A stretch of DNA of 64,000 nucleotides from Candidatus Nomurabacteria bacterium (GTDB lineage Bacteria > Patescibacteriota > Minisyncoccia > Phycocordibacterales > UBA9973): NCBI GenBank assembly GCA_052035195.1, contig JBPOHU010000001.1:13713-77712 (forward strand). Direction: 5' to 3'. The notes below the pieces were generated by a model. That model was not told the DNA's origin and made no database searches. It was given only the letters and a program-made list of their open reading frames with translations. A program made the position numbers and the translations under genes. Below are positions 11,191 to 34,410 of the stretch, piece after piece (positions within the stretch are counted from its first letter, which is position 1; each line of letters begins with the position of its first letter).

Positions 11191-12045
11191 ATGATCAATA
11201 AAGACCTTTTAAAACGTGCGAAATTAATAACACGTCAGTATGGTCGTGGTTTTTATCGATCCTCTTTTTTATTCCCCAAGAAAGTAAGAGAGGCGACTTG
11301 GATTTTTTATGCTTTTGTTCGGTTGCCTGATGAAATGGTTGATACTGAGAAAGATAAAAACAAAGCCTTAGTTGAGCTTAACAAATGGTCTAATGATTGG
11401 AAGAGTGTAATCGATAATAATCCAAACAAAGAAGTAGATCCTTTAATCTTTGCTACTAAAGAGATTTTTGATTTTTATAATATTCCTTATGAATATGTAA
11501 GTAACTTTCTTTTTGCTATGTATCAGGACTTGAATAAAACAAGGTATAACTCTTATAAAGAACTAGAAGAATACATGTATGGCTCAGCTGCTGTTATAGG
11601 TCTCGTTATGAGTCATATTATAGGTTTTCGTGAAGGCGCATTGCCACACGCCAAGGCTCTGGGAGAAGCATTTCAGCTTATAAACTTTATAAGGGATGCA
11701 AAAGAGGATTATGATGTTCGTGGTAGAGTTTATTTACCCAAAGAAGATATGGATAAATTTGGTATTACAGAAGATTATATTAGAAAGAGTGTTTTAGATG
11801 ATTCAATGAAAAAGTTTTTGGCTTTTGAATTAGGTAGAGCCAAAGTTTTATTAGAAGAGGGGCAGAAAGGAATAAAAATGCTTGGTAATGGCAGAAGTGC
11901 TGTTTTTGCTTCTTACTTAATATATAAAAAACTAATAGAAAAAATTGAATTTGAGAATTATGATGTTTTTTCAAAAAGAATAGTTATTAGCCCATTACAA
12001 AAAACAATGTTACTCTTTAAAGCAGTATGGAACAAAAATCAGTAA
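11191..12045 (+). CDS. Squalene/phytoene synthase family enzyme (phytoene or 4,4'-diapophytoene synthase, CrtB/CrtM-like)
   Basis: Isoprenoid head-to-head synthase motifs: FYAFVRLPDEMVD (first Asp-rich region), YMYGSAAVIGLVM, and the second motif NFIRDAKEDYDVRGRVYLP. 284 aa, similar in size to CrtM. Confidence 0.75.
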   Translation: MINKDLLKRAKLITRQYGRGFYRSSFLFPKKVREATWIFYAFVRLPDEMVDTEKDKNKALVELNKWSNDWKSVIDNNPNKEVDPLIFATKEIFDFYNIPYEYVSNFLFAMYQDLNKTRYNSYKELEEYMYGSAAVIGLVMSHIIGFREGALPHAKALGEAFQLINFIRDAKEDYDVRGRVYLPKEDMDKFGITEDYIRKSVLDDSMKKFLAFELGRAKVLLEEGQKGIKMLGNGRSAVFASYLIYKKLIEKIEFENYDVFSKRIVISPLQKTMLLFKAVWNKNQ

Positions 12046-13535
12046 TCATAATAGGCGCAGGATTAGGAGGGCTTGCTCTCTCTGGCATGCTTGGCAAAAA
12101 GGGCTATAAAGTAACCCTGCTTGAAAAAAATGATTCTGTAGGTGGTAGAGCTAGGCTTTGGCAAAAAGATGGTTTTACTTTTGACCTTGGTCCTAGTTGG
12201 TACATGATGCCTGATGTTTTTGAGCACTTTTTTTCTTTAATGGGTGAAGATATAAATGATTATATTTCTTTACAAAAACTTGGTCCTTCATATCGAGTTT
12301 TTCTCAAAAGTAATGGTGCTGAATATGATTTTTATGGTGATATAGAAAAAAATAAACAAACTTTTGAATCAATAGAAAAAGGTTCAGGAGAAGTTTTAGA
12401 AAAGTTTTTAGCTTCAACAAAATATCAATACGAAATAGCAAAACAAGAATTCATGTTTAAAAACTATGATTCTATTTTTGATTTTATGAATAAGAGAATG
12501 ATGACTCTTGGTGCAAAGCTGCCTCTTTTTAAAAAACAAAAAAACATCATCGATAAACTTTTCAAAAGTGAACTCCTTAGAAAGGTTATGCAATATCAAA
12601 CTGTTCTTTTAGGGACATCTCCAGGAGAGACTCCTGGTATATATAGCATGATGAATTATGTGGATTTTGGCCTTGGTGTTTGGTATCCAAAAGGAGGTAT
12701 TATCGCTGTTCCAAATGCTTTGAAATCTATAACTAAAAAATACGGGGTCTCAATACGTACCAATGCAGACGTAGAGAAAATAATAGTAGAAGCTAACAAG
12801 GCTAAAGGAGTTAGACTCAAAGATGGTACAGAGCTTTATGCTGATATTGTAGTTTCTAATGCTGATATTGTTCATACAGATAAGACCCTTCTAGGAGGAG
12901 AGCATCAACAAAAGTCTACAAAGTATTGGGAAAAGAGATCCCTAGCACCGAGCGCTTTCATTCTTTATCTTGGTGTTAAGGGTAAAATCCCAAAAGCAGA
13001 ACATCATAACCTTATTTTTTCAAAATCTTGGGATGGCTACGCAAAAGAAGTTTTCAGTAGTAGTGGTGTTTGGCCGAATGATCCATCTCTATATGTTTGT
13101 GTGCCATCAAAAACAGATATAAGTGTTGCACCAAGTGGGGATGAAAATGTTTTTGTTCTTGTGCCTATTGCTCCAGGACTTGAATATACAGATGAATTTA
13201 TAAAACAATATAAAGAAAAAATTATTTCAGAATTGGCTACTTCTTTTAATGTTCCAGACTTGAAAGACAGAATAGTTGTAGAGAGGACTTATTGTGTTAA
13301 GGATTTTATAGCTGATTACAACGCTTTCAAGGGGACAGCATTAGGCTTGGCTCATACACTTGGTCAAACTGCTATCTTCAGGCCAAACAACGTACACAAG
13401 AAAATCAAAAATCTTTTTTATGTAGGGGCGGGGACAAATCCTGGTATTGGTATGCCGATCTGTCTTATCAGTGCAGAGCTAGCCTATAAGCGTATAGAAA
13501 ACATAACTCACCCATTTCCTTTAGAAAAGATATAA
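12027..13535 (+). CDS. Phytoene/diapophytoene desaturase (CrtI/CrtN family FAD-dependent oxidoreductase)
   Basis: N-terminal dinucleotide-binding fold VIIIGAGLGGLA..LEKNDSVGGRA. 502 aa. Overlaps the upstream synthase gene by 19 nt, suggesting translational coupling. Confidence 0.75.
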   Translation: MEQKSVIIIGAGLGGLALSGMLGKKGYKVTLLEKNDSVGGRARLWQKDGFTFDLGPSWYMMPDVFEHFFSLMGEDINDYISLQKLGPSYRVFLKSNGAEYDFYGDIEKNKQTFESIEKGSGEVLEKFLASTKYQYEIAKQEFMFKNYDSIFDFMNKRMMTLGAKLPLFKKQKNIIDKLFKSELLRKVMQYQTVLLGTSPGETPGIYSMMNYVDFGLGVWYPKGGIIAVPNALKSITKKYGVSIRTNADVEKIIVEANKAKGVRLKDGTELYADIVVSNADIVHTDKTLLGGEHQQKSTKYWEKRSLAPSAFILYLGVKGKIPKAEHHNLIFSKSWDGYAKEVFSSSGVWPNDPSLYVCVPSKTDISVAPSGDENVFVLVPIAPGLEYTDEFIKQYKEKIISELATSFNVPDLKDRIVVERTYCVKDFIADYNAFKGTALGLAHTLGQTAIFRPNNVHKKIKNLFYVGAGTNPGIGMPICLISAELAYKRIENITHPFPLEKI

Positions 13536-23626: not shown

Positions 23627-23717
23627 TGCACTAATATTTGTATATAGTAAAATATAGTTGCAATATTTGCGTATGCTCAGCTCAAAATATACATTTACTT
23701 TTGTTTCTCGTAAAAAA

Positions 23718-24413
23718 ATGAAATCACTTAAACAAAAAAGTGATGTTTCTTCTACCAGGTCTCTTATTTCTGAGAAAAAGAATATTTCAGAAATCAAAAA
23801 TAGTGAATCAGATGTAGATGCAAATAGAAGAGCTTTTCTTAAAATAGCGGGATTAACAGGGCTTGGTGTTGCTGCAACTGCATTATTTCCAAAAAGTGCC
23901 AGTGCATATGTAACAGGTAGTACTCCAACCTCAAATGTTGTTGGTTCTAAAGACGCATCAAATAATCGTATAAATCCAGCGAAAGAAGATGGTAATCTTG
24001 CGACAATCGCAGGTAAAGACTTTGCAACCCAGACGACATTAGCAGCAATGAAGGCCAAGACAGACCTACTTACGTTTGATGGGAGTAACAACCTTCTAAC
24101 TGCTAGTAGTGGAGGTGCTTCAGTTGTTGGTATAAAAGATTCAAATGATGTTCGTATTAACCCTGCTCAAGACGACAGCGTTGTTTTACTTCGTCGCATG
24201 GTTAAGCTTATGGAGTCGCAAGCAGTTGTTGATAGTCAAATGCGACAAAGAGTTGTGGTTGATACTGGAGCAATTGTTGTATCTGGTTCTGTTACAGTGG
24301 CAACCATAACATCACTCAGTCAGCTTGCAGGTGTTGATTCTCGTTGGCAGATAATAGATTGGTCTAGACAAGCGTATAATAGTGGTATTCGTGGTAATTT
24401 GATTAATTCATAG
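23718..24413 (+). CDS. Predicted Tat-exported protein with internal 25-aa repeats
   Basis: Twin-arginine motif NRRAFLK, hydrophobic h-region IAGLTGLGVAATALF, and an AxA site (SASA-Y). The mature part is Gly/Ser/Thr/Val-rich with two repeats (VVGSKDASNNRINPAKEDG / VVGIKDSNDVRINPAQDD). Start chosen at ATG 23718. Confidence 0.6.
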   Translation: MKSLKQKSDVSSTRSLISEKKNISEIKNSESDVDANRRAFLKIAGLTGLGVAATALFPKSASAYVTGSTPTSNVVGSKDASNNRINPAKEDGNLATIAGKDFATQTTLAAMKAKTDLLTFDGSNNLLTASSGGASVVGIKDSNDVRINPAQDDSVVLLRRMVKLMESQAVVDSQMRQRVVVDTGAIVVSGSVTVATITSLSQLAGVDSRWQIIDWSRQAYNSGIRGNLINS

Positions 24414-24416
24414 TAT

Positions 24417-27296
24417 ATGGCAATTACAAATAATCTTAAAAAACAAGTTGATTTGCCTGTATGGGAATGGTGTAGATTTGCCCCAACAGCAACAACTGCT
24501 GTTTCTTCTATGACAACGGGTAATACTTTACAAAATCGATACTTGTATTATCAGGTTTCAAGTTTACTGTACAGGTATGATACACATGCAGATTCTTGGC
24601 ATCAACTTGCATCAGCTCCAGTTACGGCGCCGACTATCATGAATAACAATGTGATGACAAATTCTATTGGTCACTTTGGACAAGCAATATCTGGTGGTTT
24701 GAATACTATTCAAATGGCAGGACTTTCAGGTCAGGTGCTTGTGGGACAGAAGATTAGAATCATCGGCGGGACAGGAGCAGGTCAAGAAAAAACAATCACC
24801 GCTGTCTCCGCTCCTACATTTCATGAGCGTGGCATGGTAACAACAGCAAGTTCTACACAGGTTATCGATGCTTCAACAGGAGTCGGACTGAAATTATGGA
24901 AAAATAATCAATGGAAAAATTATCAGGTACGTATCGACTGGGGGACAGGAAGAACACAACTTCGAAACATTTTATACAATACACAGAACACACTCACATT
25001 TTCTGATGTAAACCATGTCACCATCAACCCGTGGGCAAACTGTCCACTCGCAGTTGCTACTGTTGCCAACTCTTCATTTTTTGTTATCGAAAGTCATCAG
25101 GTGACTGTAGATACTAACTGGTCAGTAATACCAGACGAGACCTCGAGCTTCATGATTTTATCTGGTGGTATTTGGAATGTGACTCAAGGTACCACGTCTG
25201 CACCATTCTTTTCATTCGCATATTACGACAGGCTTGCAGATGTTTGGTATCAAAAATCTACTCAGTCTGGTCTCAAAACTGCAGTGTTCCTAGCGGGTTC
25301 GGATTTGCAAATGGAGCGCATGACGGAAAATGGTGGTGCAATTTTTACTGAGACAGCATCAGGTGGAGGTGCACGGTATATTACCGCTACCGCAGTATTA
25401 ACCCCGATGGCGTTTGCAAACTTTGAAATTCGAATTGTGGCAGGGACTGGTGTGGGGCAATCGCTTTCAATCCTCAGTAATACAGCGACACGGATCAACG
25501 TGACTCAAGACTGGGATACAAATCCAGATGCTACTTCTGTGTATGAAATATGGAGAGACGTAGGAAAGATATGGCTTATTGGTGGAAACGACGCAGGTAT
25601 GCTTCAGTATTCACAAGACACAGATCAGTGGTCAACAGGTAAACAACTCGATAATGGTCAATGTAATCAGCTTGCTGCAAAAAAGAGTGGAGACAATCCT
25701 ATTGCAATAACTTCGATTACACGCTCACCCGCAGGTATTACAGTGTTAAATTCTACTCCTATTGCAGGAGGAAGTGCGTATAATATTAATGATATACTTA
25801 CGATTACTACCGGTGGTACCGGAGGAACTGCACGAGTTACAGCAGTTTCGAGTACTGGCGCTGTAACAGCGGTTAGCCTCGAAACAGTAGGTACCAACTA
25901 CACAACAGGCACAGGAAAAGCAACAACTGTAGTTCCAACAGGAGGTACTGGATGTACTCTCGATATTACCTCAATTGATTTTATTGAAACAGCGGTGACT
26001 CCGATTGCTCATAATTATAAAATAGGGGACACTGTCACTATCACTGGGGCGACGGGAACTGGGGCATCAAAATTTAATGGAACATACACAGTCACTGGTA
26101 TTCCAACTCCTACAACCAACCTTTCTTTCACATATTGTTCTGTAGGAGATCCTGGTGCTGCTACAGCAACTATTGGAGCATCACCGTCTACTACTCAACT
26201 TGTAGATTGTACTAAGAACTGGGTAGTTAATGAGCATGTAGGAAAGATCGTACAACTATCAACCAATGCAATCTTGTCAGTAGGACAGGCTAGAAGAATT
26301 GTTTCCAATACTGCTACAACACTTGTCTGGACGCTCGCTGCAACTGCACCTGTAAACGGTACAACAAAATACATAATAGAAGATATTAAACCATTTGGTA
26401 CCGATAGAATGTCTAAAGGAGAAACTACAGGGACAGAAGGTTTTGCCACATCAGGATCTACGACAACCATTGTCGATACATCAAAAAACTGGGAGACAAA
26501 TTACTGGTCACGAACAGTTAATAGAAAAGTCAGAATTGTAGAGGGAACAGGAGTTGGTGCTGAAATTGCAATTACTTCTAATACTTCAAACACGCTCACT
26601 TTTGCTGCTCAATCATTTACGGTAGATACTACAACTCGATATATAATAATGGATACTTTTGGCACAGCAACAAGTGGCACAACAACAACCCTAGTTGATT
26701 CTGGTCAGAACTGGGAAACTAACTATTGGGTAGGAAGTCGTGTTCGCTTCTTGTCTGGAACAGGGCAAGGTAATGAATACGCTATTACAGCTAATACCTC
26801 AACTACACTGACATTTGCCACAGGTACTGCCCCTGATACTTCAACTGCTTATGCAATTCTCGAAGCTACACCAAAAGCAAACGGTATACATCTTGACTGT
26901 ATTACAGGGTCAACTGATACTACTCTAAATAGTAACTACATGTATGCTTGGACAGGAACAGCAACTTCAGAACTTTCTCGCTATAATATTCATACTGAAC
27001 ACTGGGAAACTTTGTCATACTTTCCTCAGACGGAAACCATGACAACGGGTGCCATGTATGTGTACGACGGAGAAGATAGAATATATTATATTCAAGGTAT
27101 TACTACTCTTGCAAAATTAATGTACTATGATCTAGTGAAAAACATCGTTGTTCCAGCTTCTCAGCCACCATATGGTATGGGAGCTGCTGTGTCTGGGAAC
27201 CGTATTGAGATAGTTGAGACTGAAGATGGATTAAAATACCTGTACCTCATGAGACATTCTGGTACTGAGATATGGAGGACATTATTATATTGGTAG
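24417..27296 (+). CDS. Large (959 aa) Thr/Gly-rich protein with about six copies of a roughly 65-aa repeat; no signal peptide
   Basis: Starts 4 nt after the stop of the upstream Tat-signal gene. Repeat pattern TTLVDxxxNWETNYWxGxxVRxxxGTGxGxEYAITxNTSTTLTF. Kelch-like strands near the C-terminus (MYVYDGEDRIYYIQG). Confidence 0.5.
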   Translation: MAITNNLKKQVDLPVWEWCRFAPTATTAVSSMTTGNTLQNRYLYYQVSSLLYRYDTHADSWHQLASAPVTAPTIMNNNVMTNSIGHFGQAISGGLNTIQMAGLSGQVLVGQKIRIIGGTGAGQEKTITAVSAPTFHERGMVTTASSTQVIDASTGVGLKLWKNNQWKNYQVRIDWGTGRTQLRNILYNTQNTLTFSDVNHVTINPWANCPLAVATVANSSFFVIESHQVTVDTNWSVIPDETSSFMILSGGIWNVTQGTTSAPFFSFAYYDRLADVWYQKSTQSGLKTAVFLAGSDLQMERMTENGGAIFTETASGGGARYITATAVLTPMAFANFEIRIVAGTGVGQSLSILSNTATRINVTQDWDTNPDATSVYEIWRDVGKIWLIGGNDAGMLQYSQDTDQWSTGKQLDNGQCNQLAAKKSGDNPIAITSITRSPAGITVLNSTPIAGGSAYNINDILTITTGGTGGTARVTAVSSTGAVTAVSLETVGTNYTTGTGKATTVVPTGGTGCTLDITSIDFIETAVTPIAHNYKIGDTVTITGATGTGASKFNGTYTVTGIPTPTTNLSFTYCSVGDPGAATATIGASPSTTQLVDCTKNWVVNEHVGKIVQLSTNAILSVGQARRIVSNTATTLVWTLAATAPVNGTTKYIIEDIKPFGTDRMSKGETTGTEGFATSGSTTTIVDTSKNWETNYWSRTVNRKVRIVEGTGVGAEIAITSNTSNTLTFAAQSFTVDTTTRYIIMDTFGTATSGTTTTLVDSGQNWETNYWVGSRVRFLSGTGQGNEYAITANTSTTLTFATGTAPDTSTAYAILEATPKANGIHLDCITGSTDTTLNSNYMYAWTGTATSELSRYNIHTEHWETLSYFPQTETMTTGAMYVYDGEDRIYYIQGITTLAKLMYYDLVKNIVVPASQPPYGMGAAVSGNRIEIVETEDGLKYLYLMRHSGTEIWRTLLYW

Positions 27297-27302
27297 AATT
27301 AT

Positions 27303-28166
27303 ATGGACATAAATTATCTTATACAATTACTAGGGAATAGATTAAATGGATTAAATCTTGCAAAAGATCAAGCTTTTTCATCTGGAGATTTGGAGAGGAT
27401 AAACACAATAGATGCTGAAATTTTGGAAGTTAAAAATACTATTTCTAAACTAAATTTAGTAGCAAGTATTGAACAAACTGCCGCAGCTACACCTTTTACG
27501 GAGGCTCAGGTTGTACAAAATGGCATTGAAGCATCTTTTAATCCAACAGTTATTACAGATGCAACAAAATGTTTGCTTGAATATGATATTACTCCTTATG
27601 CTACAGATCCAATGCACGAATTAAAAATACAAAATATCCTTGAAAAGATGGGGTTAATGGATTCTCCAGATAAGGTAGATTTTTATATAAAGAAAACAAG
27701 TCCGGATAGTCCATTAGATGGTCTTATGGTATGGAATGCTTCAACTCAGTATTTAGTGGATGTTCGTCTTATGCTCGCACTGATGGAGCTTGATTCTCGT
27801 TTTGGAACTCTTGGCCTAGCAACAAGTACTTTTAATCCAGGTAACGTAGGTAATGATGGTGTAAATACAAAAACATATGATTCTTGGAATGATGGTGTAT
27901 TAGCAGTAGCAATGTGGTTAAATACACATAGAAAAAATAATTTAACTAATACCGACACTATTGATGTTATTCCTGCTCCACAACAAGAGCCTGTACAAAT
28001 TATAGAACCTGTGAATGTTGAAGTTCCAAAAGATACTAATCCTATAGTAGAAGCAGCCCCAGATGAACAAAAAGAAATAATACCTGAAATAGTCCCTGAT
28101 ATAGCCCCCACTCCTCCTGAAACTACTATATCAGAACCGAACACAGAGGTATTAGTAGGAGAGTAA
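27303..28166 (+). CDS. Hypothetical protein with weak lysozyme-like motif and Pro/Glu-rich tail
   Basis: Central segment LMLALMELDSRFGTLGLATSTFNPGNVGN loosely resembles the Glu-Ser..FNP catalytic region of SLT/lysozyme-like folds. C-terminus is low-complexity (PEIVPDIAPTPPETT). Confidence 0.3.
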   Translation: MDINYLIQLLGNRLNGLNLAKDQAFSSGDLERINTIDAEILEVKNTISKLNLVASIEQTAAATPFTEAQVVQNGIEASFNPTVITDATKCLLEYDITPYATDPMHELKIQNILEKMGLMDSPDKVDFYIKKTSPDSPLDGLMVWNASTQYLVDVRLMLALMELDSRFGTLGLATSTFNPGNVGNDGVNTKTYDSWNDGVLAVAMWLNTHRKNNLTNTDTIDVIPAPQQEPVQIIEPVNVEVPKDTNPIVEAAPDEQKEIIPEIVPDIAPTPPETTISEPNTEVLVGE

Positions 28167-28187: not shown

Positions 28188-28916
28188 GTGAATACACTTC
28201 AAGAAGCAATCACAAAATACTCTCATTATTTTGAGGGTTTTCGTCGCAAGCTGGTTCTCCTGGTAAAGATTTTTGCTATTGTTTTTGTAATAGCATTTTT
28301 AAACGCTGGTCCTGTTATAAAAGTTTTGCTTAAGTACTTAACTATGAAAGGCGTTACTGTCGTTACTACTTCACCATTTCAACTAGTTGAGGTGGCTATG
28401 AGTATTGCTTTTTTCTTGGCTTGCGTAGTAATTATACCTATTTGTATTTATTATTTGTATTTATTTTTAAAACCAGCTCTTTTTAAAAAAGAACAGAGAC
28501 TTTTTTTGTTTTCATTGCCACTAGCTTTACTTTTATTCGCATTAGGTTTTTTATACAGTGTTATTATGCTTTATTACGCTGTTAGATTAATCGCTACGGT
28601 TAATGTAGCTTTGGGGGTTGCTAATTATTGGGATATAAGTACTTTTATTTATCAAATAGTCTTAACTTCAACACTTTTGGGCTTATTATTTATGTTTCCT
28701 TTGGTTATAACACTCTTAATAAAGATGGGGGCAACAACTGTTAGTTTTTTACGGTCTAAACGTAGGCATGCAATCGCTGTAATCTTTGTAATAGTCTCTT
28801 TACTTCCCCCAACCGATGGTTTATCATTAATATTAATGGCGGTGCCGTTGGTGTTAATTTATGAGATCACGGTCTTAATAAACAGAAAAAAACCGGGTCG
28901 TTTATTAGTAAACTAA
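28188..28916 (+). CDS. tatC: Sec-independent protein translocase TatC
   Basis: 242 aa with six predicted TM helices. N-terminal HYFEGFRRKLVLLV matches the TatC HLxELRxRLL start. Size and hydropathy are typical. Confidence 0.75.
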   Translation: MNTLQEAITKYSHYFEGFRRKLVLLVKIFAIVFVIAFLNAGPVIKVLLKYLTMKGVTVVTTSPFQLVEVAMSIAFFLACVVIIPICIYYLYLFLKPALFKKEQRLFLFSLPLALLLFALGFLYSVIMLYYAVRLIATVNVALGVANYWDISTFIYQIVLTSTLLGLLFMFPLVITLLIKMGATTVSFLRSKRRHAIAVIFVIVSLLPPTDGLSLILMAVPLVLIYEITVLINRKKPGRLLVN

Positions 28917-28931
28917 ATAGTGTATTCACCT

Positions 28932-29084
28932 ATGTTTGGATTAGGAACAAAAGAAATTATAATTATTGTTGTTGTCATTGTTTTACTTTTTGGATCAAAG
29001 AAGATTCCAGAACTTACAAAAAGTATCGCTGATGCAGTTCGCCACTTGTTTGGAGCTTTTAAAGACGCTGACACTAAAAAGTAG
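28932..29084 (+). CDS. tatA: Sec-independent translocase TatA/E (50 aa); not in ORF track
   Basis: MFGLGTKEIIIIVVVIVLLFGSKKIPELTKSIADAVRHLFGAFKDADTKK: N-terminal TM helix, FG-hinge and amphipathic helix typical of TatA. Confidence 0.7.
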   Translation: MFGLGTKEIIIIVVVIVLLFGSKKIPELTKSIADAVRHLFGAFKDADTKK

Positions 29085-29126: not shown

Positions 29127-29300
29127 ATGTTTGGATTAGGAACAAAAGAAATTATAATTATTGCGGTTGTCCTTATTTTGCTTTTTGGATCAAAGAAGAT
29201 TCCAGAACTCGCAAAGAATCTTGTTGAGGCTTTTAAAAATCTTACCGGTATTTTTAAGAGTTCAGAATCAAGTGCTTCTGAAAAAAATAATAAAAAATAG
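29127..29300 (+). CDS. tatA: Second TatA/E paralogue (57 aa); not in ORF track
   Basis: MFGLGTKEIIIIAVVLILLFGSKKIPELAKNLVEAFKNL.. has the same architecture. Tandem duplicate with a diverged C-terminus. Confidence 0.7.
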   Translation: MFGLGTKEIIIIAVVLILLFGSKKIPELAKNLVEAFKNLTGIFKSSESSASEKNNKK

Positions 29301-29361: not shown

Positions 29362-31794
29362 GTGAAAAGTAATCATTTTAAAAATACACCAATAATCAAG
29401 ACTGTTACCCTTAGCATTTTATTGTTCGGAGCTTTTTTTGCAACGAATGTCTTCGCAACTGACACTTATATCCCAGGTGAAAGTATAGTTATTGGCGAGT
29501 TTATCTACAATGATGACTATACCCCAACTACTGATGACTGTACGATATCAGTGTATTCACCAGCGGGCGTTTCTCTTGTTAGTGAGGTGACAATGACAGA
29601 TGATGCTACTGGTTGGCATAGTTATTCTTACGGCACTCCTTTAGTAGAAGGGAAATACCCTACATTTATTACATGTGGCTCGCTTATAGGAGGCGACCTT
29701 CTAAAACTAGACAAATCTTTCATACTTAAAGCTCCGGTTGTTACTGATGCCTCTATTGCCTCATCTGTTTGGAGTAGTGCCTCTAGAACTCTGACATCTT
29801 TCGGTTCTCTTGTTTCTGATATATGGAGCTATAGCACTAGAACACTCTCATCTTTTGGAACACTTGCTTCAGATATTTGGAATGATACCTTTGCTCCAAC
29901 TCGAACACTTACAAGTAAAAATATAGCCGGAGGAGGATCTTTCGCAACAGAGAGTTATATTGATGCCTCACAATCAACAATTGTTACAGAAATCCAAACA
30001 AATAGAACTCTTATAAATGCCCTTAATAACATATCAGCTGCAGACGTTTGGACTTATGGAACTCGATCAACAAACTCTGGTAGTGTAAGTATAAATAATG
30101 CTTCAGTTGATGCAATTTGGGACAAGGCTTCTTCTAGTCTTACAACAACAGGTAGTGTAGGTAAATTAATTGTCGACAACCTTGATGCTCAAGTTTCAAC
30201 AAGGGGAACAAGTACTCTTACAGCGGGAGATGTATGGGCATCTGCAACAAGAACTCTTTCTTCTAGCGGGGTAGACGCTGTTTCTGCGGGTGTATGGGCT
30301 AATGCTGGGCGAACTCTTACTAGTTATGGTAATGACATAACTGCCGCTGATGTATGGAATACATTATCTTCATCACTTACTACTGTAGGGTCTATAGGTG
30401 AACAATTAGCAACAAATTCTGATGCTAAAACATCAGATGTAATCACAGCTATTGGAGCACTAAATAATATATCAGCCACAGATGTTTGGACTGCTGGTAC
30501 TAGAACTCTTACCTCTGGTGTAGATATTTCAAATTCTTCAATTTCTGCTATTTGGGATAAAGCAACATCTTCTCTTTCTACTTCCGGTAGTATAGGTAAA
30601 CTTGTTGTCGACAATCTCGATGCTCAAGTTTCAAGTCGAGGAACAGGTAACAGTAGCCTAACTGCTGCTGACGTTTGGTCATCAGCAACCCGAACACTTT
30701 CTGATTATTCTACTTCTGCTGTTGCTACGGCTGTGTGGGCAAATGCCACAAGGACTCTAACAAGTTATGGTAATGATATTACTGCCGCTGATGTTTGGAA
30801 TGTACTTTCGTCAACATTAACTACAGTAGGATCTATCGGAGAACAGGTTAAAACAAATCTTGATGCACCGGTATCTGCTATTGGTGGCTCAACAAACTGG
30901 TCTGTAAAGATGAGTAATGTTGAAAGAGTACAAACAGGTTATACATATAGAACAAAGGTTTTTATTTTGGATTCTAGTGCATCTCCGACTGCTCCTTTTG
31001 CTACACCTACTGTGACTCTCTACGATGTAGATCGTAATGTAGTAGTTTCAAATGTGTCTATGAACCTAATAAGCACAGGTGTTTATGAGTATACATATTT
31101 AGTAAATAACTCTGCAGCACAAGGACTATGGGAAGCAGTTATTTCTTCACAAGTAGAAAGTGGTAAAACAATACAAACGAATGATTATTTTGAAATAGCT
31201 GGGTCTCCAGCTCAGGTGCTTATCAATTCGGTTAATGCAACTAGTCCGTCATCAATTAGTGCAAATGTAACGATAACAAATGAAGGCTTAACTGGTTATG
31301 AATACCAGTATGAGTGGTGTATTGTCTCAAATTTAAATAACGATTGTGGGGGTAACGATGATGCTTATTATGCTTCAGCAGCTAAGTATATAAATCCTGC
31401 TGAGGACTGGAATACAGTTCTCACTGGGTCAGTTACAAATGCTGGAACATATTATTTCAAACTCGTTGTATATTTCGGTACTGAGAGTTCAGGGTCTTCT
31501 AGAGTCTTCACTGTAAATGCCTCTAATACTGGAGGCGGGGGTGGTGGAGGAGGCGGTGGCGGAGGCGGAGGAGGTAACACTCCACCATCTCCTGTAACAG
31601 AAAACAAGTCTTGCAATGGTGCAGATTTTAATAAAAATGGAGTAGTAGACTCCACTGATTTCTCAATATTGTTATATTATTGGAAGACCTCACCGCCTTT
31701 TAAAAACCCTTGTGTTGACATAAACTTGGATAAAAAAGTTGATTCAATAGATTTTTCAATTATGCTCTTCCAGTGGGGTAAAAAACCATTATAA
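29362..31794 (+). CDS. Secreted repeat protein with C-terminal poly-Gly linker and dockerin domain
   Basis: Signal peptide. More than 15 copies of an (A/S)xDVW/IWxxxxRTLTSxG repeat. Gly15 tract. C-terminal pair of Ca-binding dockerin segments DFNKNGVVDSTDFSILL and DINLDKKVDSIDFSIML. Confidence 0.6.
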   Translation: MKSNHFKNTPIIKTVTLSILLFGAFFATNVFATDTYIPGESIVIGEFIYNDDYTPTTDDCTISVYSPAGVSLVSEVTMTDDATGWHSYSYGTPLVEGKYPTFITCGSLIGGDLLKLDKSFILKAPVVTDASIASSVWSSASRTLTSFGSLVSDIWSYSTRTLSSFGTLASDIWNDTFAPTRTLTSKNIAGGGSFATESYIDASQSTIVTEIQTNRTLINALNNISAADVWTYGTRSTNSGSVSINNASVDAIWDKASSSLTTTGSVGKLIVDNLDAQVSTRGTSTLTAGDVWASATRTLSSSGVDAVSAGVWANAGRTLTSYGNDITAADVWNTLSSSLTTVGSIGEQLATNSDAKTSDVITAIGALNNISATDVWTAGTRTLTSGVDISNSSISAIWDKATSSLSTSGSIGKLVVDNLDAQVSSRGTGNSSLTAADVWSSATRTLSDYSTSAVATAVWANATRTLTSYGNDITAADVWNVLSSTLTTVGSIGEQVKTNLDAPVSAIGGSTNWSVKMSNVERVQTGYTYRTKVFILDSSASPTAPFATPTVTLYDVDRNVVVSNVSMNLISTGVYEYTYLVNNSAAQGLWEAVISSQVESGKTIQTNDYFEIAGSPAQVLINSVNATSPSSISANVTITNEGLTGYEYQYEWCIVSNLNNDCGGNDDAYYASAAKYINPAEDWNTVLTGSVTNAGTYYFKLVVYFGTESSGSSRVFTVNASNTGGGGGGGGGGGGGGGNTPPSPVTENKSCNGADFNKNGVVDSTDFSILLYYWKTSPPFKNPCVDINLDKKVDSIDFSIMLFQWGKKPL
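31531..31575 (+). repeat. GGN codon repeat encoding a 15-residue poly-glycine linker
   Basis: ggaggcgggggtggtggaggaggcggtggcggaggcggaggaggt. Confidence 0.7.
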
Positions 31795-31805
31795 AATATA
31801 AAAAA

Positions 31806-32714
31806 ATGAAATACCAAAATTTTTTCCCAGCCTTTATTCTATTTTTAACAACTTTTTTGTTTGTTGTTATTTTATTACCTCAAAGTAGTTACGCCGCTTA
31901 CATTAATGCTTCTGCTGAAAGTAGTATTTCTGCTGGAGATATTAGTATTATAAATATCTATTTAAATACTGAAGGCCAAGAAATCAACTCTCTCGAAGGA
32001 ACGATATCACTTTCAGACAATCGTGATAGTAATTTTGAGGTTAAAGACATTTCTCTTGTTAATTCAGTATTTAGTATGTGGCCACGCAAACCTTCTTTAA
32101 CCACGGGGCATAATATTACGTTTATCGGCGGGGTACCTGGTGGTGTAAAAGGTGACAGACTTTTAATCTTCTCAGCTTTTGTAAAAATAAATAGTCCAGG
32201 TAGTTTTGTTATAAGTCCAAGAGTAATCACTGCTTATAAAAATGATGGTTTAGCAACGGCTATTTCAATCACCAAAGACATTTCAACTATTAATGTTAGT
32301 TCTGCGGGTTCTTCACAAAAGAACGCTTTAGAGGAAGTTATTTCAAACGATAACATAGCCCCAGACCCTTTTAATGTAAGCCTTATAAAAGACCCAAACC
32401 TTTATGACAATAAAAAGTTTATTAATTTTGAAACAAATGATGGGCAATCAGGAATAAGTCATTATGAAGTAAGAGAGGGGAGTTACCCAGCTGTTAGAAG
32501 TGGTACTTCTTATATTCTTGTTGATCAAAACAAAAAAGCTAATGTCGTTGTTACTGCATATGATAAGGCTGGAAATTTTCAAGTTGTTAGCTTCAAAGAA
32601 AAACAACCTATTCGCTGGTTAACTGTCTTTACTTCTGTCATAATTATATTAGTAATAAATAAAATAGTTAAAAATAAAATTAAAAGAAGAAGCAATGCAA
32701 AAATACTGCAATAG
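31806..32714 (+). CDS. Membrane-anchored cohesin-like domain protein (signal peptide, cohesin-like beta-sandwich, Ig-like domain, C-terminal TM)
   Basis: Cohesin-like pattern SAGDISIINIYLNTEGQEINSLEGTISLSDN..FEVKDISLVNSVF..GDRLLIFSAFVKINSPGSF. Ig-like domain ending VVVTAYDKAGNFQVV. C-terminal TM plus basic tail. Confidence 0.5.
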   Translation: MKYQNFFPAFILFLTTFLFVVILLPQSSYAAYINASAESSISAGDISIINIYLNTEGQEINSLEGTISLSDNRDSNFEVKDISLVNSVFSMWPRKPSLTTGHNITFIGGVPGGVKGDRLLIFSAFVKINSPGSFVISPRVITAYKNDGLATAISITKDISTINVSSAGSSQKNALEEVISNDNIAPDPFNVSLIKDPNLYDNKKFINFETNDGQSGISHYEVREGSYPAVRSGTSYILVDQNKKANVVVTAYDKAGNFQVVSFKEKQPIRWLTVFTSVIIILVINKIVKNKIKRRSNAKILQ

Positions 32715-34410
32715 TTTAAGTTTTCTAAAAAGAATATCTGTTCTGATATTTATTTTTTGTATTTTATTGCCTATAAATAAAGTTGAGGCTGCTACTCTTT
32801 CTTTTTCTCCGAGCTCTACAACTGTTTCTGAAGGAAATATTGTTTCAATAAAAGTTGTAACAAATACTCTCGGCAAGTCAGTTAATAATGCAGAAGCTAC
32901 AATACAGTTTCCAACTGATTTACTCGAGGTTGTATCTGTTAATAAGAGCAATTCAATTTTTTCTTTGTGGGTGGAAGAACCTAAATTTTCTAACGCAGCA
33001 GGTACAGTATCGTTTAATGGTGGAGTTTCAAACCCAGGGTATACAGGTAGTAACGGCACGCTTGCTACTATTACCTTTAAAGCAAAGAAATCAGGCGTAG
33101 CCACCGTACTTTTTGCTGATGCAGCTGTCAGAGAAAACGATGGGCTAGGTACTGACATTATCTCTGGTAGGGGTACAAGTGTGATTCAGATTGGTAATCC
33201 AAAAGAAACTGAAACTCCAACTCCTGCCACTCCTACAACTACTACAAAATCTGTTAAGCCTATTGTGACTTCTGATACACATCCAGACCAAAACACATGG
33301 TATTCAAATAGCACCGCGTCTTTCAATTGGAAAACTCCTTCTGGTGTTAATTCTGTTCAAGCTTTTACAAACAGAATTCCAGAATCAGTTCCGACCACTA
33401 CTTATGATAGCTCTGTTACCCAAAAAACACTGACAGAACTTCCTGACGGCACTTTTTATTTCCATATTAGATATTCCGGCTCAAATGGTTGGGGTCCTAT
33501 AACTCACTACAAAATAAAAGTTGATACCAAGGCCCCAGAGGCTTTCACACCAACAATTAAAACCGTTGGCAATCAAAGTATTATTGAATTAAAAGCTGAA
33601 GACTTAACTTCTGGTATAGATTATTACACTCTAAAAATAGATGAAGGTGATATTTTAAACATCAAAAAAGACGATTTAATAAATTCTGAGTACATTCTCC
33701 CTGTTCTAGCTCAAGGAGATCATGTTGTAACTGTTGTAGCTTATGATAAAGCAGGTAACCATACAGAAGCTACCACAAACTTTACTAGCTCTTTTATTAC
33801 CCCTCCTTCAATATCTCTAAGTTCTTCAGAAGTTAAAAAAGGAGATCCAGTAATTATTTTTGGTAAAAGTGATTATCCAAACAAACAAGTTGAAATAATT
33901 TTTGAACTATCTGGAATACAAATCAAAAAATACATAGGAACAACTTCTGATGACGGCTCTTTCTCAGTAACTGTCGAAAATGTTAGAAAAGTTGGACTTA
34001 TAAAAGTATCAGCAAAAAATATTTTATCTGATTCAGTAAAAAGCCAAGCTTCTGAAAGTCTAGATTTGAGAGTTCTCAAGAGTGATTTTGCCAAAGTCAC
34101 AGTGACATTATTCTGGGTAGTTTTGGCAGTCGCCTTATTAGTACTATTGTTGATAGTTTTGTACATTGGTTGGTACAAGTTCTTGTCACTCAAAAAGAAA
34201 AATAAATCAAAATTACAAAATGCAATAGAAGATGCCCATAGAGCAGTGGTTCTTTTGAAAGAGGAGCTAAATGATCAGCTTGCAGAACTCGAAAAGGTTC
34301 GTGTTGATAGAGAATTAAATAAAAATGAAGAAATGGTATTTAAAGAAATTCAAAAAAATGTAGATGACGTAGATAAGTTTATTGAAAAGAAACTCAAAAA
34401 GTTACTTTAG
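32695..34410 (+). CDS. Membrane-anchored cohesin-like domain protein, second paralogue, with Ig-like domains and cytoplasmic coiled-coil tail
   Basis: N-terminal signal/TM. Cohesin-like VSEGNIVSIKVVTNTLGKSVNNAEATIQFPTDLLEVVSV..GTLATITFKAKKSGVATVLF. Thr/Pro linker. Ig-like domain ending VVTVVAYDKAGNHTEA. TM helix LFWVVLAVALLVLLLIVLYIGWY and a charged coiled-coil C-terminus. Confidence 0.5.
   Translation: MQKYCNSLSFLKRISVLIFIFCILLPINKVEAATLSFSPSSTTVSEGNIVSIKVVTNTLGKSVNNAEATIQFPTDLLEVVSVNKSNSIFSLWVEEPKFSNAAGTVSFNGGVSNPGYTGSNGTLATITFKAKKSGVATVLFADAAVRENDGLGTDIISGRGTSVIQIGNPKETETPTPATPTTTTKSVKPIVTSDTHPDQNTWYSNSTASFNWKTPSGVNSVQAFTNRIPESVPTTTYDSSVTQKTLTELPDGTFYFHIRYSGSNGWGPITHYKIKVDTKAPEAFTPTIKTVGNQSIIELKAEDLTSGIDYYTLKIDEGDILNIKKDDLINSEYILPVLAQGDHVVTVVAYDKAGNHTEATTNFTSSFITPPSISLSSSEVKKGDPVIIFGKSDYPNKQVEIIFELSGIQIKKYIGTTSDDGSFSVTVENVRKVGLIKVSAKNILSDSVKSQASESLDLRVLKSDFAKVTVTLFWVVLAVALLVLLLIVLYIGWYKFLSLKKKNKSKLQNAIEDAHRAVVLLKEELNDQLAELEKVRVDRELNKNEEMVFKEIQKNVDDVDKFIEKKLKKLL

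Follow-up and report, generated by a model that had tools for sequence, protein, structure and literature searches.

Among the closest described relatives of the system considered here are the HybO/HybC pair of Escherichia coli, a hitchhiker pair of the twin-arginine translocation (Tat) pathway, and the tatAd-tatCd genes of Bacillus subtilis, which together with phoD constitute a substrate-linked minimal TatAC operon. Bacteria of the Candidate Phyla Radiation (CPR), which account for much of bacterial diversity, live attached to other cells; to our knowledge, little has been worked out about how they attach, and we know of no account of what their minimal Tat systems export. Small beta-barrels of the FCCH type are known to decorate the tail-tube proteins of siphophages, facing outward (PMC13576161), and one has been noted in a tail-tip protein (PMC13612043). 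Further, a survey of freshwater CPR has recorded TatA and TatC in Paceibacteria and Saccharimonadia, with the substrate unnamed (PMC9166423), and hitchhiking with the signal on a single subunit is presented as an established mechanism in PMC10924467. Here we consider a stretch of 64,000 nucleotides from a Candidatus Nomurabacteria bacterium (contig JBPOHU010000001.1, positions 13,713 to 77,712; hereafter the window), in which a protein of 959 amino acids (aa), predicted to be a Kelch-like propeller carrying FCCH-type barrels, is encoded between a partner with a Tat-type signal and a cluster of Tat genes. We see about an even chance that this locus puts a phage-type virion pair to use as a surface appendage, exported by the Tat system as a complex in which the propeller, lacking a signal, is the hitchhiker.

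The gene of the 959-aa protein, called the anchor in what follows, lies at 24417..27296 on the + strand (as do the repeats, blades and clustered genes described below) and begins with ATG, as in an initial annotation of the window that had been made from the sequence. Its product is predicted to combine the propeller with further small beta domains, among them six FCCH-like barrel repeats; it is, as that annotation had noted, rich in threonine (16%) and glycine (9%), and holds 7 cysteines. A BLASTP comparison of the whole protein with itself returned the diagonal only and was replaced by searches of 70-aa segments against the masked protein, together with shuffled controls. The best off-diagonal pair joins aa 673-746 to aa 747-820 (75-78 bits, E ~1e-22), and dozens more tie aa 85-200, 314-386 and 580-660 to aa 673-820, against a maximum of 25.8 bits across ten composition-preserving shuffles. 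An iterated repeat hidden Markov model (HMM) converges on a 69-position unit with six significant copies, which confirms the internal repetition that had been proposed, the estimate of about six copies and, in essentials, the consensus of the unit; its length is about 68-74 aa and not ~65 aa.

The copies are graded in completeness. Three are full, namely copy 4 (26169..26384, aa 585-656, independent E-value (i-E) 5.7e-31), copy 5 (26439..26654, aa 675-746, i-E 4.1e-34), which forms with its successor the 75-78-bit BLASTP pair, and copy 6 (26661..26864, aa 749-816, i-E 2.4e-31). Copy 3 (25353..25556, aa 313-380, i-E 3.7e-18) is nearly full, the match falling chiefly on the second two-thirds of the unit; copy 2 (24831..25028, aa 139-204, i-E 1.1e-24) is shortened by its C-terminal quarter (HMM positions 1-54 of 69), and copy 1 (24729..24824, aa 105-136, i-E 8.6e-8) is partial, retaining the second half of the unit alone, with additional support from a BLASTP pairing of aa 87-134 with aa 748-797. 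Several of the positions given in the initial annotation do not agree with these: no distinct copy stands at about residue 640, and the one at aa 139-204 had been overlooked. Exactly six significant copies are found by the same HMM in 164 of the 207 family members. A Pfam match to Guanylate_cyc within the repeat region (17 bits) was rejected as spurious.

Modelling indicates that the repeat is a small FCCH-type beta-barrel and not a wholly new fold. Copy 6, modelled alone (68 residues) with AlphaFold2 from an alignment of 36 repeats, gives a small closed beta-barrel with a pLDDT of 96.7. Its top fold matches in the PDB are the FCCH domains of Uba6/Uba1 (TM 0.65-0.66, root-mean-square deviation 3.0 A, probability up to 0.96), including 7sol_A at TM 0.65 and 3.0 A, while the phage structures matched are the Chi tail tip (8vjh_D, TM 0.70), the JBD30 baseplate/tail tip (8rk3_O) and several N-terminal domains of tailspikes. 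Because the Foldseek E-values are non-significant (0.2-1), as is expected for 68 residues, the FCCH assignment is a match at the level of the fold. The unit had been put forward as previously unrecognised, which is correct in that current domain libraries do not model it and in need of correction as to its fold, which the model places among known ones. The repeat profile found nothing meaningful among PDB sequences with HMMER, and PF09356 (Phage_BR0599) does not match the 959-aa protein even at E<=1; repeat-rich relatives give summed PF09356 matches (P0127, 5e-10; P0124, 7e-7), with no single domain passing. One of these relatives, P0124 (1,542 aa), fuses FCCH-like repeats to a protein-arginine deiminase (PAD, E=8.5e-43, and PAD_M), an unexpected enzymatic partner. 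Searched against 1.84 billion cluster representatives, the profile matches 11,976 (E<=1e-3), of which 4,103 pass E<=1e-10; the proteins measure 291 to 7,645 aa, and each contains 3-13 stretches that match. Such numbers make the repeat a common module, one that current domain libraries miss and that is not confined to reduced-genome bacteria, where the initial annotation had suggested looking for it.

The whole protein, modelled with AlphaFold2 on a 63-sequence alignment of its family, is a compact multidomain globule that is almost wholly beta (mean pLDDT 89, pTM 0.88). Its strands form six sets of three or four (aa 30-63, 244-280, 384-423, 825-866, 880-915 and 930-957), and every set bears a Kelch-like motif, Y-x-Y-D-x-x-x-D-x-W, in full or as a remnant. 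Our reading of the model is a Kelch-like propeller of six blades, between which the ~70-aa repeats and two further small beta domains are inserted, the blades being assigned from DSSP strands and motifs rather than from coordinates. The predicted N-terminal closing strand and blade 1 occupy 24462..24605 (aa 16-63, motif YRYDTHADSW); in the model the strand at aa 16-18 could close the last blade, sub-threshold Pfam Kelch matches fall at aa 45-69, and BLASTP pairs aa 33-70 with aa 832-872. Blade 2 would lie at 25146..25256 (aa 244-280, motif YYDRLADVW), with Y269, Y270, D275 and W277 invariant in the family alignment, and blade 3, assigned from that alignment as well as from DSSP strands, at 25566..25685 (aa 384-423, motif LQYSQDTDQW). 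Putative blades 4-6 take up 26889..27287 (aa 825-957) and include MYVYDGEDRIYYIQG (aa 880-894), where the Kelch-like strands reported earlier near the C-terminus prove to be real.

Foldseek supports the same reading by local rather than global similarity. Against the PDB, the whole model finds generic propellers alone (TM ~0.1), and local alignments to the Kelch domains of KLHL12, Keap1 and LZTR1, blades 4-6 among the aligned regions, reach a probability of ~1 over 150-300 columns. Against BFVD, it finds one uncharacterised orthologue, and no fibre was matched in either database. Pfam Kelch models stay below their gathering thresholds (Kelch_4 14.1/21.6, Kelch_6 12.1/25.3, Kelch_1 9.9/20.1 bits), as does Kelch_6 in the relative P0017 (17.5 bits against 25.3). 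Of the two folds that had been guessed from the sequence, the beta-propeller is backed by the model and the Kelch alignments; the protein is not a beta-helix.

The anchor belongs to a large undescribed family, principally of tailed-phage virions. Full-length homologues number more than 360 (45-94% identity), every one of them annotated as hypothetical; the named sources are CPR metagenome-assembled genomes (MAGs) of Yonathbacteria, Saccharibacteria and Paceibacterota, and 198 relatives are found on IMG/VR viral contigs. In Pfam and NCBIfam, no model reaches threshold for the protein, and PHROGs offers a weak match to phrog_12615 (unknown function; E 1.4e-4, aa 837-936); the earlier statement that no family could be recognised accordingly stands for curated families. 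Refutation had been tied to clear homology with a known family, phage tail fibres being the example given, and half of this is found: it is related to phage proteins, and neither PHROGs nor Foldseek searches of PDB and BFVD match it to a characterised tail-fibre or tailspike family.

The gene order of the phage loci (loci are numbered with the prefix L) places the module among virion genes. In L010, the order is TerL, a portal/MuF fusion, the partner-anchor pair, the prohead protease and the HK97 major capsid protein (MCP); L090 is T4-like, with gp17, gp18, gp19, the portal gp20, a collagen-like protein, partner, anchor, the protease gp21, gp22 and gp23. In at least seven loci the module sits between portal and protease/MCP, and other contigs with relatives encode T4-type DNA polymerase and PHROG "virion structural" proteins. 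The idea that the anchor itself might be an HK97-fold MCP, raised by its position after the portal in L010 and L090, was rejected given the all-beta model without a spine helix and the presence of separate MCPs (phrog_10 in L010, Gp23 in L090). The portal/MuF (minor head) fusion of L010 (1273-4131, 952 aa, recognised by PHROG matches) has a C-terminal third that looks Hint/intein-like by eye.

Among isolates, Pseudanabaena phage Pam2 (ON014754) alone has a homologue, and its ORF65 and ORF66, the counterparts of partner and anchor, were both positive by mass spectrometry in virions (Supplementary Table 2, PMC9382816). It is for this orthologue, Pam2 ORF66, that presence in the virion is documented. 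Pam2_66 (L088, 19986-22613) bears the public label "flagellar hook-length control protein FliK", a propagated misannotation that stems from a BLAST match to a Parcubacteria protein (PMC9382816); neither sequence comparison nor family searches found any resemblance of Pam2 gp66 to FliK.

The pairing of the two proteins is a nearly constant feature of the family. In the window, the partner is encoded at 23658..24413 as the longest open reading frame (ORF; 251 aa), with the probable true start at the ATG at 23673, and consists of a Tat-type signal, a middle part of fibrous appearance that contains NPAxxD motifs, and a conserved C-domain of ~100 aa (aa ~154-251). In 79 of 87 loci, an HMM of this C-domain matches the gene immediately preceding the anchor, and it has scarcely any other matches; searched against PDB sequences, the partner profile found nothing. 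The gap between partner and anchor has a median of 12 nt across loci and is 3 nt in the window, after the partner stop codon. Moreover, collagen-like G-X-Y proteins often adjoin the pair, and in L086 a collagen-like protein of 1,063 aa is naturally fused to a partner domain at its C-terminus, a fusion which suggests that a fibre may end in the partner domain and there meet the propeller. The pairing, the short gap, the co-presence in Pam2 and the fusion of fibre and partner together lend indirect support to a putative complex between partner and propeller.

Phage collagen-like proteins beside the pair (L005 6652-7413, L090 6050-7480, L021 7159-9372) share a C-terminal ...xxAM(A/S)IAL(G). Two apparent relationships were discarded: a neighbour cluster ("c0", 100-2467 aa) that might have been a shared fibre family is largely held together by single linkage through collagen-like G-X-Y low complexity, and the match of the partner HMM in L021 is an artefact of the same low complexity.

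What sets the locus in the window apart from those of phages is the N-terminus of the partner. The predicted Tat signal (23673..23906) runs from MLSSKYTFTFVS through NRRAFLK (N56-RRAFLK-62) and a mildly hydrophobic h-region, IAGLTGLGVAATALF, to PKSASA, with predicted cleavage before YVTGSTP (A-S-A83/Y84); the motif, the h-region and the A-x-A site are all present, and no other ORF in the window has a Tat-like N-terminus. Phage-type partners lack this extension. The layout recurs in L001, L006, L007 and L091-L105, and (K/R)R-x-F-L-K followed by an h-region and A-x-A is found in 19 distinct partners, five with RR and 14 with KR. By comparison, the N-termini of the anchors are conserved and signal-free in Tat-type and phage-type loci alike, so that the signal is carried by one of the two subunits only, as in a hitchhiker pair. 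The motif M(L/I)ASK(Y/H)SFRL(L/V)S stands ~40 residues before the twin-arginine (window 23673-23830; partners of L007 and L097-L105), and a chaperone might dock on the unusually long, conserved n-region of the partner. L100 and L104 hold a second paralogue of the partner with four FCCH-like barrels within its C-domain; in L104, this paralogue carries its own Tat signal, and therefore the barrel domain type occurs on proteins predicted to be exported.

Directly 3' of the anchor follow the genes that complete the cluster. The first, c21 (27303..28166, 287 aa), carries a peptidoglycan hydrolase domain that resembles GH73 (N-acetylglucosaminidase), and its N-terminus is invariant and, as in the anchor, free of a signal peptide; PF01832 scores 25.0 bits in the window, below the gathering threshold of 30.2, and 29.2 and 31.0 bits in the orthologues of L104 and L103, the latter above it, and the profile of c21 gives weak matches to FlgJ and endo-beta-N-acetylglucosaminidase in the PDB. 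Among the loci compared, c21 is confined to those of the Tat type, always in this position. TatC (28188..28916) matches TIGR00945 at E=7e-29, below the equivalog cut-off, and the Pfam TatC model recognises its orthologues in L001-L004; it is followed by two copies of TatA, of 54 aa (28920..29084; PF02416, E=6.9e-11, 41.7 bits) and 57 aa (29127..29300; E=7.6e-12, 44.7 bits), both above the gathering threshold of 21.

A scan of contigs with the 959-aa protein as the single query gave two loci, and a metagenome scan queried with the partner added further Tat-type loci. The order partner, anchor, c21, TatC (then TatA) is found in the window, L001, L002, L006, L007, L091, L095, L100, L101, L103 and L104, that is, in at least 11 loci, L093 being rearranged with TatC and TatA just upstream. 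Every scanned contig long enough to judge (L091, L095, L100, L101, L103, L104) holds a signal-bearing partner, the anchor, c21 and TatC, and the partners of Tat-type loci are just 37-53% identical.

A mechanism can be proposed in which the propeller would fold in the cytoplasm and bind the partner, presumably by docking to its C-domain, and the adjacent dedicated Tat translocase would move the complex over the membrane, with the propeller and possibly c21 as hitchhikers. By analogy with FlgJ-type hydrolases, c21 might open the wall locally, and the end state would be a stalk-and-knob appendage on the cell surface whose barrels could serve as exposed binding modules, for example in attachment to a host cell. 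In phages, the pair adjoins collagen-like fibre genes and forms part of the particle, and in this CPR bacterium, of the Paceibacterota type, the partner would have acquired a twin-arginine signal peptide. The surface or fibre protein suggested by the initial annotation is therefore retained as a plausible surface or appendage role, and not as membership of a characterised tail-fibre family. More broadly, a set of CPR/Patescibacteria spanning clades might have rebuilt a phage virion appendage as a cell-surface organelle for host-cell attachment, recruiting TatAC and a GH73 hydrolase into the operon and exporting a 104-kDa propeller in folded form, a proposal we advance tentatively and hold to fall somewhat short of an even chance. 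The reverse direction, in which phages captured a surface module of CPR bacteria, is equally plausible.

Several observations weigh against export of the pair as a hitchhiker complex. KR is commoner than RR in Tat-type partners (14 versus 5), the stretch preceding the twin-arginine motif is unusually long (~35-50 aa), and Tat-signal models stay below their cut-offs on the partner (PF10518 TAT_signal 12.2/22.7 bits; TIGR01409 14.1/16.7). A hitchhiker of 104 kDa is large for a minimal TatAC system. In L003 (6316-11129) and L004, TatC and TatA divergently adjoin a pair (P0033, 1,042 aa) with a signal-less partner, an arrangement that the hitchhiker model leaves unexplained. The mass spectrometry of Pam2 gives presence in the virion, not the position of gp65/gp66, and nothing indicates how the complex would remain attached to the cell. 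Further, a rough neighbour-joining tree puts the Tat-type anchors in at least three places (non-monophyletic), one of them beside Pam2, and the nearest non-Tat relative (71% identity) is of the phage type, with a tail-fibre-like gene and an endolysin nearby; on both accounts, transfer between phages and CPR bacteria may have run in either direction and more than once.

Of the alternatives, the one that fares best is that the partner alone is a Tat substrate, while the propeller remains cytoplasmic and, for instance, helps the partner to fold or assemble or proofreads it as a chaperone; the adjacency of the genes would then reflect co-regulation only. Dedicated chaperones of the TorD/DmsD type, which act in the cytoplasm, are often encoded close to the Tat substrates they serve, a precedent that would suit an anchor without a signal peptide. 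However, known Tat chaperones are small and all-helical, quite unlike a 959-aa propeller with six barrels. Since both Pam2 proteins are present in the purified virion, the large one is part of the structure and more than a cytoplasmic helper, and barrels of the FCCH type face outward in solved phage tails and occur in the partner paralogue that has its own Tat signal. We judge this alternative unlikely.

The next holds that the propeller is an enzyme, such as a sialidase, a glycosidase or a galactose-oxidase-like depolymerase, with which phages and CPR cells would degrade surface polysaccharide, its barrels serving as carbohydrate-binding modules. The weak Foldseek matches to NanB sialidase and GlxA (E ~5e-4 to 1e-3, TM 0.10-0.15) that could be quoted for it are no better than those to generic propellers, and the many invariant D, E, R and Y residues of the propeller fit the structural Kelch motif (Y-x-Y-D-x-x-x-D-x-W). 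Even between very different phages the proteins keep 36-60% identity over their full length, more than is usual for a receptor-binding protein, which would suit an enzyme, but no catalytic family in Pfam or NCBIfam is matched, and we regard enzymatic activity of the propeller as improbable. That the pair is a prophage remnant or the cargo of a mobile element without cellular function, beside Tat genes by coincidence, is in our view more improbable still: the family is overwhelmingly phage-borne, its closest non-Tat relative adjoins the tail-fibre-like gene and endolysin mentioned above, and GC content over the gene is raised (0.42 versus ~0.35), but the window has no further phage genes, the ORFs are intact and strongly conserved (79-97% identity among MAGs), the order partner-anchor-c21-TatC-TatA recurs in at least 11 loci although the partners are 37-53% identical, and the signal was gained specifically in Tat-type loci, where alone c21 is found.

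The wider setting is that of a cellular chromosome. The window encodes MreB, Tgt, UvrABC, TopA, SerRS, DnaX, MiaA and three tRNAs, and no phage hallmark genes are found among its ORFs; the pair lies in a cellular, non-prophage region. The rise in GC content, which reaches 0.424 at 24001-26000 (the first half of the anchor gene) between flanks of ~0.33-0.38, could reflect horizontal origin or just coding for Gly, Ala and Thr. Downstream of tatA follow syntenic surface proteins (29362..34410): a dockerin/MG2 protein of 810 aa (29362-31794), with Dockerin_1 at 29.8 bits (above its gathering threshold), MG2 just under its own and a run of ~15 glycines near the C-terminus, and two proteins of the c10 family (31806-32714 and 32695-34410), both with signal peptides, the longer of which ends in a C-terminal membrane anchor. 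This dockerin/c10 block is syntenic in the window, L001, L002, L007, L091 and L104, and conserved gene order is what links it to the Tat system. By eye, c10 resembles a cohesin in its N-terminal part, but Pfam gives no match. Elsewhere in the window, at 11191-13535, the N-terminal sequences of two adjacent ORFs (284 and 502 aa) resemble by eye phytoene/squalene synthase and phytoene desaturase, carotenoid-type genes that would be unusual in a CPR genome.

It is against this background that the locus may be of wider use. It provides a concrete candidate for what the Tat systems of CPR bacteria might export, in the form of a conserved operon whose sole recognisable Tat signal stands on the partner of a large phage-type propeller. 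It gives a name and a predicted fold to a widespread, unannotated family of phage virion proteins, to which GenBank has attached the wrong label "FliK"; it also defines an FCCH-type repeat that is abundant (~12,000 protein clusters) yet missed by current domain libraries. If the export model is correct, it would be a clear case in which phages and ultra-small bacteria have exchanged structural modules; if the organelle proposal is correct as well, it would supply the first defined substrate for the minimal Tat systems of CPR bacteria and help to explain why these otherwise puzzling systems exist. No earlier description of a CPR Tat operon with a propeller was found in the literature. The Kelch propeller, the FCCH barrel and Tat hitchhiking are themselves known kinds, and the insertion of barrels in a propeller is an unusual architecture.

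Compared with described systems, the nearest is the gp65/gp66 pair of Pam2, which is truly orthologous: gp66, with 36.5% identity across 85% of the query, contains the same repeats, and the partner domain is matched in gp65 at E=6e-30. The phage pair differs in that gp65 lacks a signal peptide, tat genes and c21 are absent, and gp66 is shorter (875 aa) with its barrels distributed otherwise. With the Kelch propellers of KLHL12, Keap1 and LZTR1, the anchor shares the Y-x-Y-D...D-x-W motif and, as the model suggests, would share four-stranded blades, six in number, with an N-terminal closing strand, whereas its predicted blades are non-contiguous, with ~180, 100 and 400 residues inserted between blades 1/2, 2/3 and 3/4, and it has no BTB/BACK or other eukaryotic partner domains. 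The single repeat folds in its model as a small closed antiparallel barrel, like E1 FCCH domains and the barrels of phage tail tips, which face outward in phage tails, but here six such barrels would be inserted in a propeller, not one appended to a tube protein. Finally, the locus resembles HybO/HybC-type pairs in bearing a twin-arginine-type signal on one of two adjacent, translationally coupled proteins, and B. subtilis tatAd-tatCd/phoD in encoding a minimal TatA/TatC beside its presumed substrate. It differs from these known Tat pairs in that the cargo would be a phage-type structural pair and not a redox enzyme containing a cofactor, in that the signals are mostly KR and the putative hitchhiker is unusually large, and in that export is predicted from the genes.

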